Source: a virus (taxonomy: Duplodnaviria > Caudoviricetes). From it: a stretch of 64,000 nt of DNA. Of this stretch, positions 2,935 through 51,123 are shown piece after piece. The translations under genes and the position numbers were made by a program. Positions within the stretch are counted from its first letter, which is position 1; every line of letters begins with the position of its first letter. The stretch lies in the IMG/VR virus record IMGVR_UViG_3300032305_001732, positions 1 through 64,000 of that record. One strand, written 5' to 3'. The notes beneath the pieces are model-generated. The model did not search any database and was not told the origin of the DNA. It saw nothing but the letters and a program-made list of their open reading frames with translations.

Positions 2935-3259
2935 GTATGCAGTGTGTAAGTGCCATAGATGCGGTGGCCGACTGCTTGTATCAGAATACAGCGCAACTGT
3001 TAACATGCGCATTGACGGTAAATTGCATCCGGTTGGCGTACGCCGTGTGCCGTGCCAGCGCTGCGAAGATTGCGGTACGGCAACAATGGATGCCAGCTCT
3101 GATGAATATTACGCGTACTATTATCAGCGTTACATAAACGAAAAAGGCCTAAACACATGGCGCCATCGTGCGTGGCGTTACGTTAAACGGCAGTGGCGTC
3201 TATGGGAAACAATGTTTTACCGCGGCCCAATGTGGCAATGGCGGCGAGAACAGCGCTAA
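2912..3259 (+). CDS. YgiT/MqsA-type zinc-finger protein
   Basis: CHRCGG...VRRVPCQRCEDCG pattern; GGAG RBS before ATG 2912. Confidence 0.6.
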   Translation: MEEQDNAEYAVCKCHRCGGRLLVSEYSATVNMRIDGKLHPVGVRRVPCQRCEDCGTATMDASSDEYYAYYYQRYINEKGLNTWRHRAWRYVKRQWRLWETMFYRGPMWQWRREQR

Positions 3260-3267
3260 CAAAACAA

Positions 3268-3341
3268 AGCCGCATAGCTCAGTTGGTTAGAGCGCCTGCT
3301 TTACACGCAGGATGTCGGGGGTTCGAGTCCCTCTGCGGCTA
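3268..3341 (+). tRNA. tRNA-Val(TAC)
   Basis: Canonical cloverleaf AGCCGCA/TGCGGCT, CCTGC-TTTACAC-GCAGG, TTCGAGT T-loop. Confidence 0.97.
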
Positions 3342-3368
3342 ATGGCCTCAATCAAAGAAAGGAAGTGT

Positions 3369-3635
3369 ATGGCGAAAGCGGATTATGCCGTGATTCAGGT
3401 AGATGCTGACAGGGTTTTCCTGGTCGACCTTGATCTGGGCGGTAGATCTGTTACGAACGATGCTGAGGCTGTCTGCGAGGAGATGCAGGCAGCCTATCTC
3501 GGTAGACGCGTGATCTACAGAGATACGATGGGTAGGTGGGATGAGATGCGTGTGGACAAGCACAACAAAATTTTGTTTGTCCCATACGACGAGTACATCC
3601 CTGACTGCGAGATTACCATGATGGAATCTTTGTAG
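3369..3635 (+). CDS. Conserved-type phage hypothetical protein
   Basis: SVTNDAEAV...VIYRDTMGRWD motif; AAGGAAG RBS. Confidence 0.8.
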   Translation: MAKADYAVIQVDADRVFLVDLDLGGRSVTNDAEAVCEEMQAAYLGRRVIYRDTMGRWDEMRVDKHNKILFVPYDEYIPDCEITMMESL

Positions 3636-3647
3636 TTCGATACCAAA
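3627..3647 (+). promoter_or_regulatory. 21-nt repeated intergenic motif, copy 1
   Basis: TCTTTGTAGTTCGATACCAAA; near-identical copies at 9565, 9937, 10898. Confidence 0.65.
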
Positions 3648-3657
3648 GGAGTTTCCA

Positions 3658-3969
3658 ATGGGTAATTATCTCGAGACGCCAGAAAGAATGAATAAAGCCG
3701 AACAGCTTGAGAAACTGTACGGCGCAAAAAGAATAGACAAAGACGCCGCTGAAGATTTAATTGACGAACAACGGGGCGCAGTGATTTGCGTTGTTAAAAA
3801 TCCGTTGTTTGATGCGGCTGCGTTCTGCTGCAGCCCTCAGGAGTTCCGCCGGTTCAATCACCCTATGGATGACAGGCAAAAGACCTGGCTGTTCATTGAA
3901 AACAGGCAACGCGTCTGCGACGACTCGGGCTATACGGCAGACATGAAAGCCATAGCCGAGATGGAATAA
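3658..3969 (+). CDS. Hypothetical protein (103 aa)
   Basis: AAGGAG RBS, intact ORF. Confidence 0.8.
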   Translation: MGNYLETPERMNKAEQLEKLYGAKRIDKDAAEDLIDEQRGAVICVVKNPLFDAAAFCCSPQEFRRFNHPMDDRQKTWLFIENRQRVCDDSGYTADMKAIAEME

Positions 3970-3978
3970 TCACAAAAG

Positions 3979-4079
3979 CCGCGCATGGTGTAATGGTAAG
4001 CACACGAGATTTATATTCTCGGCCCGTAAGGGTACAGGCTGATTACCTGTAGGTCGGGGTTCGAATCCCTGTGCGCGGA
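3979..4079 (+). tRNA. Atypical tRNA-Ile with two anticodon-like arms (TAT and GAT)
   Basis: CCGCGCA/TGCGCGG acceptor, GTGT/GCAC D-stem, CGAGA-TTTATAT-TCTCG, CCC-GTAA-GGG, ACAGG-CTGATTA-CCTGT, CGGGG-TTCGAAT-CCCTG, A73. Confidence 0.85.
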
Positions 4080-4164
4080 TTATTTTTGTGTTATTGTGTA
4101 TTTTCGTGTGCTCTTACCTTTTAATTGTACTGCCTGTCAAAATATTTCACACCCAGGAGTTGTT

Positions 4165-4374
4165 ATGCCAATCGATTTTTCAAGCATGGAAACGGTCTTT
4201 AAGCGTGTTGTAAATATCTGGAGCTGGCGTAAGCCACAGCCAGGAGAAACGCCAGAGCAGTATCGTGAAGCTGCTGCTCACTACGTTGGCCTCAGTGATC
4301 CCGAAGAGGCTGATGCGATTCGTAACGGTGCTGTGTTCACCAAGTTCGATCCACCACTTGTATTTAAGGACTAG
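4165..4374 (+). CDS. Hypothetical protein
   Basis: CAGGAG RBS before ATG 4165. Confidence 0.7.
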   Translation: MPIDFSSMETVFKRVVNIWSWRKPQPGETPEQYREAAAHYVGLSDPEEADAIRNGAVFTKFDPPLVFKD

Positions 4375-4378
4375 CTAC

Positions 4379-5179
4379 ATGGCGGCAAAAACTAGAGTTA
4401 AACTCAAAAAAACTGTTACTGCAAATAAGCCGCAAATTTTTGTGCCCGGCGCTAAACTAAAATCAGAAGAATTTGCAAAAACTCTTACGTGGAATAAAGA
4501 CGGCAGCGTATCGTGCGTTTGTGTAATCGATACGACAAAGCTCAAATGGCTTGACGATCTCGTTACTCTTAAAGAATGTCTACACGCAGTAAGCGCGAGC
4601 GCAGAAGACAGATACGGATTTGACTCATTTGTTGACGATCTGTTTTCTAAAGAAATCCTTGAAAAAAACGGCTACACCATCGACTGCCAGCCACAACGGG
4701 ACAATGAAATCAATCAGCTGTCTAATGGTTTGCCGTCTGATACAGCACCAGAATTTGATGTTATAGGCGTAAACAACAAATTCGTAACAGTGCGTATGAC
4801 TGTTTGTTTTCTGGGCATTGCGCGTTGGATTTATAACACAACGGTTGACTACGCAGTTAAGCTGTGTCGTGATGGTTTTGACAAGCTGACAAAAAACCAA
4901 AAAAATGTTGTTAGTAATATGCTTGACGCGTATTGTGCAAACATTATTTCACCAGAAATGTATGCGTGGGATTCGTTTGAGGAGCAAATAGCTATAGATG
5001 CGCGTAATCAACACGCGCAATTATTTGACGTTTTTCGTCTGCCTTTTGTACCTGCAGATTGGTACAAGACGCAACGTGTTACAACCAAAAAGCTAGAAAC
5101 GTTTTACGCAAAAAAAGCGGCTGAACGAAAAGCAGCAGACGAAGAAAAAAGAAAATTAGCTCGCCTAGAAAAGCCATAA
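4379..5179 (+). CDS. Hypothetical protein (266 aa)
   Basis: Long ORF, AAGGA RBS, basic N- and C-termini. Confidence 0.8.
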   Translation: MAAKTRVKLKKTVTANKPQIFVPGAKLKSEEFAKTLTWNKDGSVSCVCVIDTTKLKWLDDLVTLKECLHAVSASAEDRYGFDSFVDDLFSKEILEKNGYTIDCQPQRDNEINQLSNGLPSDTAPEFDVIGVNNKFVTVRMTVCFLGIARWIYNTTVDYAVKLCRDGFDKLTKNQKNVVSNMLDAYCANIISPEMYAWDSFEEQIAIDARNQHAQLFDVFRLPFVPADWYKTQRVTTKKLETFYAKKAAERKAADEEKRKLARLEKP

Positions 5180-5256
5180 ACAATACGTGGCCCTGTTGGT
5201 TAGAAGCTAATTTGCCTGAATACAATTCGGGATAGCTAATTTTTCCAAGGAGTAGT

Positions 5257-5484
5257 ATGGAGAGAGACACAGTCGAGGTGATGGCAAAAGTCGCGCAAAA
5301 AATAGCGCAGGCTAAAAAAGCAGTTGGTGATTTATTGGACAAGCGTATGTGCAACTACGAGACATACGCTCACATCCGTGACCAGTTAGATGACGGCCAG
5401 GAACTCATGGCCGTTTATTGCGGTTGCGCCCCAATACGGTTAATCACAGGGCAAGTGGACGAGATCATGTCCAACCATGCATAA
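5257..5484 (+). CDS. Hypothetical protein
   Basis: AAGGAG RBS. Confidence 0.75.
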   Translation: MERDTVEVMAKVAQKIAQAKKAVGDLLDKRMCNYETYAHIRDQLDDGQELMAVYCGCAPIRLITGQVDEIMSNHA

Positions 5485-5491
5485 CGCGTAT

Positions 5492-5565
5492 AACTCGGTA
5501 GCCCAATTGGCAGAGGCGGTAGACTTAGGATCTACTTGTTGCGGGTTCGACTCCCGCCCGGGTTA
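5492..5565 (+). tRNA. tRNA-Leu(TAG), short variable loop
   Basis: AACTCGG/CCGGGTT acceptor, GTAGA-CTTAGGA-TCTAC, GCGGG-TTCGACT-CCCGC. Confidence 0.95.
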
Positions 5566-5598
5566 TTATGTCCGATACCTAAAGCAATAGGAGATAAT

Positions 5599-6048
5599 TT
5601 GCCGGAATACGAGACGGTCATTGCAGACGAGACGGCGCACCAAATAGAGTTGCGCCGTCTCGTTCTCGTTTATAACCCAAACTGCTCTACGCATTATCCC
5701 GAGCGGTTAATGATTACTCCAGAAATGACGCTAAAGTATTTTGGCGAATTAATTGAAATTGGGCCCTATACGCAGGAGCTATTCCTTCAAGTTGTAAAGG
5801 ATGATTTTCGTCAGCCAGTTACGCTTGAGAATATGCGCAAGGCCCACATCGGTTTTCAGCACCTCACGGGGTTGCTCGAGCTGTCTTTTAACTACACATG
5901 CCAGCAGTTCAAGTTCGGCTGGAAATACCCTGAGACATATCTCCATCCGAGGTACCAGGGCAACCTCGCCGACATCGCGCTGCTGCTTTCTGACCTACCT
6001 AAACTGCGCGAATTTATTCTGCGCGTTAAGAAAGAAAAGGGAATATGA
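5599..6048 (+). CDS. Hypothetical protein
   Basis: AGGAG RBS before TTG 5599; overlaps next start (ATGA). Confidence 0.7.
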   Translation: MPEYETVIADETAHQIELRRLVLVYNPNCSTHYPERLMITPEMTLKYFGELIEIGPYTQELFLQVVKDDFRQPVTLENMRKAHIGFQHLTGLLELSFNYTCQQFKFGWKYPETYLHPRYQGNLADIALLLSDLPKLREFILRVKKEKGI

Positions 6049-30576: not shown

Positions 30577-30580
30577 TTCT

Positions 30581-30667
30581 GGACAGGTGGCAGAGCGGTT
30601 GAATGCACTGGTCTTGAAAACCGGCGAGCCCTGACGGGCTCCGGGGGTTCGAATCCCTCCCTGTCCG
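30581..30667 (+). tRNA. tRNA-Ser(TGA)
   Basis: GGACAGG/CCTGTCC acceptor, CTGGT-CTTGAAA-ACCGG, long variable arm, G73. Confidence 0.97.
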
Positions 30668-30710
30668 TTAATCTTGCGCGTTTCTGCGTCTCGTTTATAC
30701 TTGCGATTTA

Positions 30711-46671: not shown

Positions 46672-49600
46672 ATGCCAGACTTAAATCCGTCCAATTCTAT
46701 TCTCGGACCCACTACGCGCGAGTTCGGTGACGTTCAGTCACTGCGCAGCGGTATTTTTAATCAAGCGCAGCAGTCGGCGTTGCAAGTAGCGCCGTTTGAG
46801 CCTGGCGCTATTCGTACAGGCATTTTTAATGGCGTGCTGCAGCAAGCACAGAATATCAAGCCAATACAAAATGATCTTTATACGCTCAGCCTGCAAGACG
46901 TGAATTACGAAGGCCCCGAGAACTTTACAAAAAAAGATCACAAGCAGGCAGTGCTGTCACACGGCAGTCTGGCGCGTAAATTGCGTGGTACTTGGACGTT
47001 GACTGACAACGCGAGCGGCGAAGCAATATCGCAACGGCGCGCAACGATTGCGAATGTGCCCTATCTAACGCACGCCGGCACGTTTGTGAACAATGGCGTC
47101 GAGTACACGCTGGCCCACCAGATGCGTTTACGCCCAGGTGTGTATACGCGTGAAAAAGACAACGGCGAGCTGGAAGCGCATGTAAACGTCCTTCCAGGCA
47201 AAGGCCGCATGCATCGTTACTTTCTTGACCCGAAGACCGGCGTATTCAAGATTAATATCGGCCAGGCGCAGATTCCGCTTATGCCCATGCTTAAAGCAAT
47301 GGGTGTTCCAGAGCAGGAAATTCGCAAGGCGTGGGGTAATGAATTAACCGCCGTAAACATGGAGAAGGGCGATGCAGGAACTCTGGACAAACTGTATAAC
47401 CGGCTGGTTTATAAACCCGTTGCCGACCTTGATCCCGCTGGTAAGCAAAAAGCTATTGCGGAAGAATTCAGCAAGATGGAGCTGGACCCGGAAGTCACTA
47501 AAAGGACGCTCGGCGCGCCGATTAAAAACCTAACGCCAGACGCAGTGCTCGCAATCACTAAAAAGCTTATAGCAGTTAATCGTAAAGAAACTGATCCAGA
47601 TGACCGCGACAGCATGGCATTCCAGCAAGTATTCGGCCCTGAAGACCTTATTGCCGAGCGCTTCACAAAAGACCGGAATACGCTGCGGCAATTGCTATGG
47701 AAAGCTACGGCAAAAAAGACATTAGATCACGTACCGACTGGCGTATTTAACAAAGCTATTACGGCTGCGCTTGTCGGCAGCGGGTTAGGCTCGAGTCTTG
47801 AAGAAATTAACCCTGCTGAAATCTTCGACCACCAGGCTCGAGTTACGCGGCTAGGCGAGGGCGGTATTGGTAGTCTCGATGCCGTGCCGGTTGAAAGCCG
47901 AAGCGTGCAGCCTAGTCACTTCGGATTTGTGGATTATCTCCGCACTCCTGAATCTGGCAAAGTTGGCGTTGATATGCGTTTTGCTCGCGGGGCGCTTAAG
48001 GGCGCTGACGGAAAGATTTACACGCAGGTAAAAAACCTACAGACGGGCGAGACCGAATATAAATCTCCACAGGACATTGCCGATGCGCCGCTGGCGTTTC
48101 CCGGCGAAGATACGTCCGATCTGCCGACAGTCGCCGCTATTGTTAATGGCAAAATGAAATACGTACCGCGTGAGCAGGTGCAGTACATGCTTCCCCACAT
48201 GGACGCGTCTTTCTCTTCGCTGTCTAACATGGTGCCACTCAAATCCATGATGAAGGGCCATCGCGTCATCATGGGTAGCCGTATGTTCACGCAAGCATTA
48301 CCGCTCGTTGGCGCTGAGGCGCCTTTTATTCAATCGGGCGTCCACGGTACACCAGACCGATCGTACGAAGATGAGATGGGCAAGCACATGGGCGCAATCC
48401 ATGCAGACGGCCCGGCCCAAGTTGTATCTGTAACGCCTGACGAGATCGTTCTTCGCGATAAGGACGGCAACAAACGTTCCGTCGATCTTTACAACGATGC
48501 ACCATTTAATCGTAAAACATTCTGGACGCAAACACCGACAGTTCAGCCTGGTGATACGGTAAAGCCGGGACAGTTACTGGCAACGTCTAATTTTACTGAC
48601 AAGCAAGGCACTGCTGCGCTTGGGTTAAATATGCGCGTAGGCTATCTGCCGTTTAAAGGCTACGTGTATGACGACGCTGTGGTTGTTTCGGAATCTGCGG
48701 CAAAGCGCCTGACGTCTGAGCATATGTATCAGCACGAAGCAGAAGCCGACGACAACAATCATATAGACAAGCGTAAGTTCGTTAGTTTGTTTCCGCAGGA
48801 ATATGATCGCAAGACGCTAGACAACTTTGACGATAACGGCGTGGTTAAAAAGGGTACGACTGTTAAATACGGCGACCCGCTTATTCTTGTCAGCAAAGCT
48901 AATGAAACAACATACGGGCAGGTATATCGCGGCAAGTCGGCTAACTTCGCAAACGACTCCGTGACCTGGAATCACCATTCGCCGGGTATAGTTACAGACG
49001 TGTCGCCGACTAAAAAAGGTTACAGCGTTGTAGTTAAAAATCAGGCCCAGATGGAAGTAGGCGATAAGCTTACAGGTCGCTTCGGCGATAAGGGCGTCGT
49101 GGCAGCTGTTATTCCTGACGATCAAATGCCGAAAGACACACAGGATCGTCCGCTTGAGGTTCTGGTGAGTCCGCTTGGTTTGGCTAGTCGTATTAATCCT
49201 TCGCAGCTTGTAGAAGCCGCGCTAGGTAAAGTTGCAGAGCGGACTGGTCAGCCTTACAAGATTCAAGACTTCGATAGTGCGCGGGATCTCGTGCAATTTG
49301 CAAAAGACGAATTGCGCAAAAACAACATGAACGATCTTGAGAGCGTCACAGACCCAGAAACTGGTCGCAAGATTAAAGACGTGCTTGTAGGCAATCGTTT
49401 CTTTATGAAATTGCACCATACAGCTGAGGCCAAAGCACAGGGGCGATCGACCGGCGGCTACACGGCTGAAGGCGCGCCGGCAAAGGGTGGTGAAACAGGC
49501 TCTAAGCGAATCGGCACACTCGATCTTGGCGCTTTATTATCTCACGGCGCTGGGCAGGTTATTCGGGACGCGAAGATGGTGCGCGGGCAGGCTAATCCTG

Positions 49601-51123
49601 AGTACTGGTCGCAATTCATGGCTGGCTATTCTGCGCCGTTACCTAAGATACCGCAGGTGTACCACAAGTTTGTTGAGCAGTTGCGCGGTGCTGGTATTAA
49701 CACAGTACGCGAAGGTACTAAAACAAACATAATGGCGCTAACCAATAAGGACATTGACGAGCTTGCCGGCGATCGCGAGATTCAAAATGCAGAGACTGTT
49801 GATTGGAAATCTGGCATGCGTCCAAAGACGGGCGGACTGTTTGACGAGAAGTTAACAGGCGGCCACAACGGTAATCGCTGGTCTAAGATCACGTTGCACG
49901 AGCCTATGCCGAATCCTGTGATGGAAGAGCCTATTCGGCGTGTGCTTGGGCTTACAGAAAATAAATTCCGTAGTGTGCTGGCAGGGAAAGAGCAGTTGGG
50001 CGATAAAACTGGCCCGTCGGCTATTAAAGACGCGCTAAGCCGCATAGACCTACCGAAGGCTATGGAGCAGGCGCGCCAAGATATTCATTCTGGGCGTAAA
50101 ATGGCCCGTGATGCTGCTGTTCGCCGGTTAGCATTCTTAAAAAGTGCAGAAAAGACTGGTGTACATCCGGAAAATTGGATGCTGGACAAGATGCCGGTGA
50201 TCCCGCCGGCGTTTAGACCCGTGTCGACGATGGGGCAAAAGAAGATGCCGCTCGTTGCTGACGCTAATTATCTCTATAAAGAGCTTCTAGACGCTAACGG
50301 AGCGCTAAAAGACTCGTCCGGCGTGTTGTCAGACACTGGCGACGAGCGTTTAGGGTTATACGACGCCATGAAAGGCGTTACAGGCCTCGGCGACCCAACA
50401 CAATCAAAGAATGTAGAGCGCCGAGTACGTGGTTTTCTGTCGCAGATCTTTGGAAATTCGCCAAAATACGGCACAGTGCAGCGAAAACTGCTTAGCAGCA
50501 CTGTAGACCTAGTCGGCCGCGCTGTTATTACGCCTAATCCCGACCTAGACATGGATCAGGTGGCGCTTCCGGAAGAAAAAGCCTGGGAAATATACAAGCC
50601 GTTTATTGTACGCGGCCTTGTGCGGCGTGGTTTGCCTCGTATGGAAGCTATCAACGCATTTGACGGCAAGAGTAAAGAAGCGCTAAGCGAACTTCAGACG
50701 CAAATGAACTCGCGGCCAATTATTATCAATCGCGCGCCCGTTTTACATCGTTATGGTATGATGGCCTTTTATCCAAGGCTGACAAAAAACAAAGTTATGG
50801 AGGTTAGTCCGCTTGTAACCAAGGGTTTCGGCGCCGACTTCGACGGTGACGCGATGCAATATCACGTCCCAAGCACGGATGACGCTGCCAAAGAAGCTGT
50901 TGCGAAGATGCTGCCAAGTAAAAACTTGTTTGCGGCTTCTACATTCAAAGCGCACTACACTCCAGTAGCGGAATATCAGTCAGGGCTGTATGTTGCTTCT
51001 AATAGAATCAACAAACAAGCGCAGCCGAAGGTATTTAGAAGTAAACAAGACGCAATTGCGGCATATCGACGTGGCGACATTGAGGTTGACACGCCAGTAC
51101 ATATCGTAGAGAGCGACGATTAA
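46672..51123 (+). CDS. Multisubunit RNA polymerase, beta subunit fused to beta' N-terminal half (catalytic)
   Basis: beta motifs TPESGKVG, GDKLTGRFGDKGVV, SRINPSQ, KLHH...RSTG, RIG; beta' motifs GGLFD, LDKMPVIPPAFRP, GRAVITP, NRAPVLHR, GADFDGD. Confidence 0.95.
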   Translation: MPDLNPSNSILGPTTREFGDVQSLRSGIFNQAQQSALQVAPFEPGAIRTGIFNGVLQQAQNIKPIQNDLYTLSLQDVNYEGPENFTKKDHKQAVLSHGSLARKLRGTWTLTDNASGEAISQRRATIANVPYLTHAGTFVNNGVEYTLAHQMRLRPGVYTREKDNGELEAHVNVLPGKGRMHRYFLDPKTGVFKINIGQAQIPLMPMLKAMGVPEQEIRKAWGNELTAVNMEKGDAGTLDKLYNRLVYKPVADLDPAGKQKAIAEEFSKMELDPEVTKRTLGAPIKNLTPDAVLAITKKLIAVNRKETDPDDRDSMAFQQVFGPEDLIAERFTKDRNTLRQLLWKATAKKTLDHVPTGVFNKAITAALVGSGLGSSLEEINPAEIFDHQARVTRLGEGGIGSLDAVPVESRSVQPSHFGFVDYLRTPESGKVGVDMRFARGALKGADGKIYTQVKNLQTGETEYKSPQDIADAPLAFPGEDTSDLPTVAAIVNGKMKYVPREQVQYMLPHMDASFSSLSNMVPLKSMMKGHRVIMGSRMFTQALPLVGAEAPFIQSGVHGTPDRSYEDEMGKHMGAIHADGPAQVVSVTPDEIVLRDKDGNKRSVDLYNDAPFNRKTFWTQTPTVQPGDTVKPGQLLATSNFTDKQGTAALGLNMRVGYLPFKGYVYDDAVVVSESAAKRLTSEHMYQHEAEADDNNHIDKRKFVSLFPQEYDRKTLDNFDDNGVVKKGTTVKYGDPLILVSKANETTYGQVYRGKSANFANDSVTWNHHSPGIVTDVSPTKKGYSVVVKNQAQMEVGDKLTGRFGDKGVVAAVIPDDQMPKDTQDRPLEVLVSPLGLASRINPSQLVEAALGKVAERTGQPYKIQDFDSARDLVQFAKDELRKNNMNDLESVTDPETGRKIKDVLVGNRFFMKLHHTAEAKAQGRSTGGYTAEGAPAKGGETGSKRIGTLDLGALLSHGAGQVIRDAKMVRGQANPEYWSQFMAGYSAPLPKIPQVYHKFVEQLRGAGINTVREGTKTNIMALTNKDIDELAGDREIQNAETVDWKSGMRPKTGGLFDEKLTGGHNGNRWSKITLHEPMPNPVMEEPIRRVLGLTENKFRSVLAGKEQLGDKTGPSAIKDALSRIDLPKAMEQARQDIHSGRKMARDAAVRRLAFLKSAEKTGVHPENWMLDKMPVIPPAFRPVSTMGQKKMPLVADANYLYKELLDANGALKDSSGVLSDTGDERLGLYDAMKGVTGLGDPTQSKNVERRVRGFLSQIFGNSPKYGTVQRKLLSSTVDLVGRAVITPNPDLDMDQVALPEEKAWEIYKPFIVRGLVRRGLPRMEAINAFDGKSKEALSELQTQMNSRPIIINRAPVLHRYGMMAFYPRLTKNKVMEVSPLVTKGFGADFDGDAMQYHVPSTDDAAKEAVAKMLPSKNLFAASTFKAHYTPVAEYQSGLYVASNRINKQAQPKVFRSKQDAIAAYRRGDIEVDTPVHIVESDD

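Follow-up and report, generated by a model that had tools for sequence, protein, structure and literature searches.

A three-hairpin tRNA-Ile(UAU) gene with an additional GAU arm on a metagenomic phage fragment and its relatives in phages and bacteria

A tRNA-Ile(UAU) gene of 101 bases was identified at positions 3979-4079 (+ strand) of the window, i.e. the whole 64,000-nucleotide stretch analysed, which corresponds to the initial 64 kb of a phage record in IMG/VR (76.6 kb, estimated completeness 37%). The gene is a real and unusual tRNA and represents a new structural variant of tRNA-Ile, in which three hairpins (an anticodon arm with UAU, a GNRA mini-hairpin and a second arm displaying GAU) stand between the D and T arms. 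On the strength of its homologues, it is very probably a conserved functional tRNA of a two-arm UAU+GAU family found in phages and bacteria. [quoted passage not shown]

Architecture of the gene and its setting on the phage fragment

Position n of the tRNA corresponds to window position 3978+n, and all elements lie on the + strand. The 5' strand of the acceptor stem (CCGCGCA, 3979-3985) forms seven of seven pairs with 4072-4078, including C4-G69, and the first pair is C1-G72. The 3' strand UGCGCGG and the discriminator A73 (4079) together occupy 4072-4079, and CCA is not encoded. The D arm, GUGU-AAUGGUAA-GCAC (3988-4003), is followed by A26, directly after which stands arm 1 (CGAGA-UUUAUAU-UCUCG, 4005-4021) with the loop UUUAUAU at 4010-4016, the anticodon UAU at 4012-4014, U33 and A37. 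The one-base linkers G4022 and U4033 flank the mini-hairpin CCC-GUAA-GGG (4023-4032) with its GNRA tetraloop. Arm 2 (ACAGG-CUGAUUA-CCUGU, 4034-4050) displays GAU at 4041-4043 and has U37 and, in this member, U33. It is followed by the tail AGGU (4051-4054), the counterpart of the ordinary variable loop (positions 44-48), and by the T arm CGGGG-UUCGAAU-CCCUG (4055-4071). The 29 extra bases are located after position 43. Canonical tRNA features are present, namely a 7-bp acceptor, a D arm, a 5-bp/7-base anticodon arm, U33, a purine at 37 and a GTTCRA T arm. The distance from the anticodon arm to the T stem is 33 bases, as against 4-6 in class I UAU genes.

The assignment of the whole gene is based on Rfam, on the minimum free energy (MFE) fold and on an alignment of 16 sequences. 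Rfam model RF00005 was matched completely (1-71 of 71) with a score of 55.3 bits (gathering score 29), and in its alignment the anticodon arm contains UAU and the variable region takes up a 30-base insert. The MFE fold (-42.2 kcal/mol, z = -3.3) consisted of the same six helices, and none of 200 shuffled sequences folded as well. The three hairpins on a normal scaffold described in the initial annotation were thereby confirmed to the base. ARAGORN, applied to the window and to the whole 76.6-kb record, called no gene at 3979-4079. After in silico deletion of 4005-4033 it called a 72-base tRNA-Ile(gat), as had been expected at the outset, and the result was symmetric for the other arm, since deletion of 4022-4050 yielded a canonical 72-base tRNA-Ile(tat). 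A search of 3900-4160 against Rfam returned only the tRNA and no group I intron.

The public runs containing the DNA of the window are freshwater and aquatic metagenomes, and no RNA run is among them. An RNA-polymerase-beta-like protein of 1483 amino acids is encoded at 46672-51123. Its best matches among cultured phages (Salmonella phage Arash and Vibrio phages D69, D181 and D148) are only 31.7% identical, so that the fragment is taken to derive from a large phage without a close cultured relative, and the lineage appears to be sparsely sampled. Close copies of the tRNA gene were found neither by an exact 46-base pattern scan nor by a pattern scan for the D arm plus UAU, and no related loci were found by way of the two flanking proteins. 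A blastn search with the window tRNA and a viral homologue (L016, see below) against 50,697 phage records gave nothing, or no more than matches of half length to genes for tRNA-Gln and tRNA-Met. The sole megablast match of 3000-6000 was the tRNA-Pro of Stenotrophomonas phages.

Between 1.4 and 5.6 kb of the window, tRNA genes are interspersed with small ORFs, and one more tRNA lies at 30.6 kb. Five tRNAs were called by ARAGORN: Lys(UUU) at 1468-1540, Leu(UAA) at 2585-2657, Val(UAC) at 3268-3341, Leu(UAG) at 5491-5566 and Ser(UGA) at 30580-30668. Together with the UAU gene, all six tRNAs found on the fragment have U34, and the set covers only A-ending codons. AUA accounts for 14.5% (106/731) of the Ile codons of the phage at a genome GC content of 51%. 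This context of six U34 tRNAs and AUA usage fits a UAU decoder. No gene for IleRS or TilS was found on the 76.6-kb fragment, which is 37% complete. Two minor observations concern the same region. The Lys(UUU) tRNA is atypical in that it was called by ARAGORN and gave no Rfam tRNA match even at E values up to 1. A YrlA (Y RNA-like) Rfam match at 5514-5623 overlaps tRNA-Leu(UAG); at 31 bits it is well under the gathering score of 69 and probably represents a tRNA-like module and no more.

Conservation of the gene and the association of UAU with GAU

Contigs of four public runs were compared with the window over 3600-4500. A freshwater contig from a different study (X3, 2017) had 25 differences in the 313 bases upstream of the gene (3658-3970) and a 4-base insertion at 3975. 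Its total over 3600-4121 was 26 differences, which leaves at most one inside the tRNA. At the flank rate of about 8%, some 8 changes per 101 bases are expected, and the Poisson probability of one or fewer is about 0.003 by our arithmetic. The comparison indicates that the gene is under purifying selection. The gene is likewise spanned in a 2025 run (X4). Since independent assemblies from other studies contain it, an assembly artefact, for which the initial annotation had suggested a check of the reads, is excluded.

A pattern scan of viral contigs requiring both loops gave about 19 sequences that parse as complete tRNAs with a 7/7 acceptor and A73, among them L016 with the same three-hairpin layout as in the window. 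A second scan for this layout gave 15 distinct sequences. Besides the window gene, the three-hairpin subclass has 15 distinct viral sequences plus one Lysobacterales MAG contig, and alignment A1 comprises 16 three-hairpin sequences. In A1, 96.1% of the cells were paired, as against 65% in shuffles and at most 45% with partners slid, and changes on both sides were seen in 25 of the 29 pairs. All six helices covary; both sides had changed in 7/7 pairs of the acceptor, 5/5 of arm 1, 2/3 of the mini-hairpin and 5/5 of arm 2. The D arm, the 7-bp acceptor and the 5-bp T stem were 100% paired in the 16 homologues. Both 7-nt loops are conserved in the homologues as well, so that the loss of these loops, named in the initial annotation as a refuting outcome, was not observed.

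Three of the matching loci (L261, L269 and L016) belong to related phages whose neighbouring proteins are 39-86% identical. They share with the window the tRNA order Lys(UUU), Leu(UAA), Val(UAC), three-hairpin gene, Glu, Leu(UAG). Their arms 1 and 2 are identical to those of the window gene, and their acceptor stems are altered by compensatory substitutions. The mini-hairpin of the closest relatives, L016 and L261, is UCC-GAAA-GGA, as compared with CCC-GUAA-GGG in the window, which is again compensatory. Other members have the mini-hairpin stems CC/GG, AGC/GCU, CUC/GAG and GCC/GGU. In scans in which GNRA was not forced, long spacers still contained GNRA loops (L016, L221, L319 and L335).

None of the 13 three-hairpin loci checked with ARAGORN was called. 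As the program misses the three-hairpin form, tRNA counts of phages and metagenomes, and the codon-usage arguments built on them, omit such genes. Two neighbouring genes were recorded in passing. Locus L271 has an ordinary tRNA-Ile(GAU) at 401-476, which precedes its three-hairpin tRNA-Ile(UAU) at 606-705 by 130 bases. In another viral tRNA cluster with a three-hairpin Ile gene, the tRNA called by ARAGORN at L260:3579-3654 has a four-base anticodon (aaaa).

The wider two-arm family comprises genes of 89-95 bases in phages and bacteria, which share the UAU arm, the GAU arm, the tail and A73 with the window gene. In most members the arms are joined by 1-3 bases, and the covarying GNRA mini-hairpin and a length of 98-101 bases distinguish the three-hairpin subclass. 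The layout (a UAU arm directly after position 26, a 5-bp/7-base extra arm with G-A-U at loop positions 34-36, a 4-5-base tail and the T stem) was found in 103 distinct sequences, of which 101 have A73. The tails (CGGUU, CGAU, AGGUU, UGAU and AGGUC) are similar to the variable loops of class I UAU tRNAs.

The association of the two triplets was examined in both directions. In the forward test the D-arm end AGAGC, a CUUAUR loop and the T loop were fixed and 12-40 bases between them were left free, and those distinct UAU tRNAs were counted whose variable region measured 17 bases or more. The best 5-bp/7-base hairpin was centred on GAU or GAC in 48 of 63 distinct viral tRNAs (GAU 46, GAC 2) and in 36 of 43 from bacterial and archaeal genomes, plus two in a shifted register. 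In shuffled variable regions such a loop occurred in 6%. The variable regions of 12 of the 15 viral exceptions resemble those of intron-type genes, and six of these lie on giant-virus (GVMAG) contigs. The extra sequence near the anticodon loop of these genes looks like the eukaryotic/archaeal intron type, which explains most of the exceptions. In the reverse test the 17 bases of arm 1 were left free and the extra loop was required. UAU was present in 12/12 real two-arm tRNAs from viral contigs (9 distinct) and in 3/3 from 401 Acidobacteriota genomes, a small bacterial sample whose remaining matches were class II tRNA-Tyr genes or chance. The link between UAU and GAU is therefore tight, in a family that is recurrent.

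The intron-type-looking tRNA-Ile(UAU) genes are L133, L141, L195, L196, L205, L211, L224, L232, L233, L236 and L240 among the viral sequences, and L323, L358 and L363 in archaeal MAGs. Extra arms bearing GAC, with a decoding arm that is still UAU, were seen in two viral sequences (L181 and L230) and in Acidobacteriota and other genomes (L274, L338, L351, L379 and L385). GAC is the valine anticodon triplet; if the extra arm sets identity, the carriers of GAC could receive valine. A G1-U72 wobble occurs in 54 of the 103 family members and in 12 of the 16 three-hairpin members; in the class I UAU tRNAs (n=108) the first acceptor pair is G-U in 18 and G-C in 52.

In a metagenome sample, 114 distinct UAU tRNAs with the D-arm end AGAGC included 108 of class I and 4 that were long-armed, all of the latter with GAU. 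Ordinary short-loop UAU tRNAs were thus about 25 times commoner than long-armed ones, and since class I UAU tRNAs without the extra arm are far commoner, the arm is no general requirement for the charging of UAU tRNAs.

Decoding and the occurrence of the design in bacteria

Wherever arm 1 was unconstrained, it had U33, UAU and A37. In the loop of arm 2, only G34-A35-U36 is kept family-wide. Position 33 of this loop was A in 33 and U in 14 of the 54 sequences of the viral set, position 37 was U in 30/54, A in 13/54 and G in 10/54, and the commonest loop is CAGAUUA. As arm 2 is mostly without U33 and a purine at 37, it would not be a decoding loop. This comparison makes it probable that arm 1 decodes AUA, and arm 2 would take no part in decoding.

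The initial annotation had offered a dual-anticodon or switchable tRNA, in which both loops serve as anticodons through alternative stackings of the junction and AUU and AUC are read in addition to AUA. Such a decoder would agree with the U33 in arm 2 of this member (CUGAUUA) and with the canonical cloverleaf left by removal of either arm, and the one-base linkers might create a four-way junction able to stack both ways. Family-wide, however, arm 2 has mostly A33 and a pyrimidine, mostly U, at position 37, which is incompatible with a canonical decoding loop. Moreover, tRNA-Ile(GAU) is already supplied by the host, and L271 has an ordinary tRNA-Ile(GAU) beside the three-hairpin gene; the other tRNAs of the phage all target A-ending codons. 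With nothing but the central triplet of arm 2 retained, dual decoding is not supported and the proposal is considered very improbable.

A second proposal makes arm 2 the genuine anticodon arm and regards 4005-4033 (the UAU arm plus the mini-hairpin) as an inserted segment, either removed or tolerated. It is the least probable of those considered. The tRNA-Ile(gat) obtained by deletion of this segment and the normal 4-5-base variable loop after arm 2 speak for it. Against it, unconstrained arm 1 invariably has UAU in a canonical loop with U33 and A37, which an excised or inert piece would not keep, and arm 2 mostly lacks U33 and a purine at 37. In addition, the region contains no group I intron, and carriers without TilS (see below) need an AUA reader. 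We know of no machinery in bacteria or phages for a 29-base tRNA intron.

The two-arm design was found on bacterial chromosomes too. Two carriers, Actinomyces timonensis and A. succiniciruminis, are without TilS. Three carriers with TilS (Pyrinomonadaceae, a Stenotrophomonas MAG and Pseudoxanthomonas) are proteobacterial or acidobacterial. Among 81 evenly sampled Actinomycetaceae genomes the two-arm gene was present in 4 and TilS was absent in 5, and all four carriers are among these five; TilS was thus present in 76 of 77 non-carriers and in 0 of 4 carriers. At face value, with kinship ignored, the probability of this overlap is 5/C(81,4), or three in a million. The four Actinomyces carriers have nearly identical genes and probably form one clade, so that the link to TilS amounts to about one evolutionary event. 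In the Actinomycetaceae carriers the two-arm design appears to replace the lysidine system, and their gene content indicates that a two-arm tRNA can be the AUA reader of a cell. The TilS-less Actinomycetaceae genomes are G001, G031, G072, G197 and G137, with loci L283 and L392-L395. In G137, which is without TilS and without the two-arm gene, pattern searches turned up neither a close homologue nor a UAU gene of class I.

The occurrence in cells also bears on the remaining suggestion of the initial annotation, that of a decoy displaying two anticodon loops. A non-translational mimic or decoy that soaks up a defence nuclease or IleRS, a decaying pseudogene or an assembly artefact would be in line with the lack of an ARAGORN call at the gene. 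The acceptor (7/7), the T arm and A73 are, however, kept with compensatory changes across many lineages, and the gene is nearly unchanged in independent assemblies. The presence of the design on the chromosomes of Actinomyces without TilS points to a working AUA decoder, and explanations of the non-translational kind are considered highly improbable, if a shade less so than an insertion.

Possible role of the GAU arm and relation to known tRNAs

If the gene is a working AUA tRNA-Ile, its parts can be given the following putative roles. Arm 1, in its canonical place after A26 and with U33 and A37, would read the AUA codon on the ribosome through UAU. The slot between position 26 and the variable loop would hold the GNRA mini-hairpin and the 5-bp/7-base arm displaying G-A-U. 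Arm 2 would act as an identity element within the molecule, offering the host IleRS the G34-A35-U36 triplet that it normally reads, and would do so because UAU is a poor anticodon for an IleRS of the bacterial type. Charging of tRNA with a UAU anticodon by E. coli IleRS is inefficient, a defect cured by the single change W905R according to the account in PMC3575796, and in yeast the activity of an unmodified UAU transcript is described as 40-fold below that of its modified counterpart (PMC11685878). The mini-hairpin would make the junction four-way and probably fixes or switches how the two arms are oriented, with the D stem stacked on arm 1 or on arm 2. A conformational change between states suited to the ribosome and to the synthetase can be envisaged, if speculatively.

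The assignment of arm 2 as an IleRS identity element is tentative, and several observations count against it. U37 is usual in arm 2 and a minority of the arms show GAC; several carriers keep TilS; and class I UAU tRNAs without the arm outnumber those with it by 108 to 4. An enzyme bound at the anticodon end of the L-shape would also have to reach the position of arm 2. E. coli IleRS reportedly also uses t6A37. An IleRS of the eukaryote type, which tolerates U34 better, may occur in actinomycetes, as mentioned in PMC3575796. The fuller proposal that the two jobs of the anticodon are split, with the ribosome reading the UAU arm, IleRS reading the GAU copy and the GNRA junction presenting either, is slightly more doubtful than the identity role taken by itself.

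The extra GAU arm may instead be functional with a partner other than IleRS, which is regarded as unlikely. It might contact another protein or RNA, prevent mischarging by MetRS or a different synthetase, direct or inhibit the modification of U34, aid discrimination of AUA from AUG on the ribosome, or protect the tRNA against a tRNA nuclease of the host. The retention of GAU while the stems covary implies selection and names no partner; UAU tRNAs of class I, which lack the arm, are common, and U37 is unlike the t6A37 determinant of E. coli IleRS. Discrimination of AUA from AUG is a real problem for UAU tRNAs, since the tRNA(UAU) of M. mobile is described as misreading AUG on E. coli ribosomes (PMC3575796). 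On the other hand, the kept triplet is that of the major tRNA-Ile anticodon and goes together with an Ile anticodon in arm 1, which is most simply explained by a GAU-reading enzyme. With regard to such protection, we know of no nuclease with specificity for a GAU anticodon loop.

A kissing contact of the arm 2 GAU with T-loop positions 59-61, as a partner within the molecule, was likewise considered and is not supported. The two are complementary in 76 of 103 sequences, but the GAC variants do not covary and L016 is without a complement; [A/G]UC at T-loop 59-61 was judged to be ordinary T-loop sequence.

How AUA can be read as Ile and AUG left unread is a classic problem, for which lysidine and agmatidine are known solutions. 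A further modified cytidine at position 34 has recently been described (PMC11938285), and pseudouridine in eukaryotes (PMC11685878) and an adapted IleRS and ribosome in M. mobile (PMC3575796) are given as others. If the identity role preferred here is true, a tRNA carrying its own copy of GAU on an extra arm would add one more solution, made in RNA alone and independent of TilS. Since it would function with a host IleRS that is not adapted to it, the design would be readily spread by phages. It would also be, to our knowledge, the first natural case in which the identity and decoding triplets are physically separate in one tRNA, and as such of direct interest for orthogonal tRNAs and genetic-code engineering. 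No description of a two-arm or extra-GAU-arm tRNA design was found by full-text searches of the literature.

The closest functional parallel is found in M. mobile, the tRNA-Ile2 of which is taken to be an ordinary class I cloverleaf. As described in PMC3575796, it has in common with the window gene a UAU that reads AUA, A73, a 7/5 acceptor/T branch and the replacement of lysidine; it differs in that charging was solved on the side of the enzyme, by Arg865 of its IleRS. The 29 extra bases of the window gene (GNRA hairpin and GAU arm) suggest a solution on the side of the tRNA. With class I UAU tRNAs in general the window gene shares UAU in the canonical arm, and it departs from them in having no short 4-5-base variable loop.

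Class II tRNAs (bacterial Leu, Ser, Tyr and Sec) also have an extra helix between the anticodon and T arms. Their arms typically have loops of about 3-5 bases, are not conserved in sequence and stand after positions 44-45. The additional arm of the window gene, in contrast, has 5 bp and a 7-base loop with a conserved triplet and stands before positions 44-48, the anticodon is that of Ile and the extra hairpins are two in number. Both arms share one slot, from position 26 to position 44, unlike class II variable arms. In tRNA-Ser the variable arm is reported to be an identity element for its synthetase (PMC7609411).

Allo-tRNAs are likewise non-canonical bacterial or phage tRNAs; their variable arm is long and their anticodon often UAU. 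They are described as having an 8/4 or 9/3 branch and UAU among their commonest anticodons (PMC5389517; PMC7609411). Their identity is of the serine type and their branch 8/4 or 9/3, whereas the window gene has a 7/5 branch and A73. The nematode nev-tRNA-Ile(UAU) resembles the window gene in its UAU body with a variable arm and in an identity set apart from the anticodon (PMC3333845, PMC4300185). As described there, it is eukaryotic and nematode-specific, is charged with leucine via a Leu-type arm and has no GAU loop. Intron-containing tRNAs have either a group I intron of more than 200 bases or an intron directly after position 37, the latter as in the tRNA-Ile(UAU) genes of giant viruses and archaea, while arm 1 of the window gene is an intact 5-bp/7-base hairpin and the extra bases follow position 43.

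In GenBank the two-arm gene of Synechococcus phage SynMITS9220M01 (MT408532.1) is annotated only as 'tRNA-Ile' and that of phage DSL-LC02 is unannotated. Culturable carriers exist in the TilS-less Actinomyces timonensis and in Synechococcus phage SynMITS9220M01.
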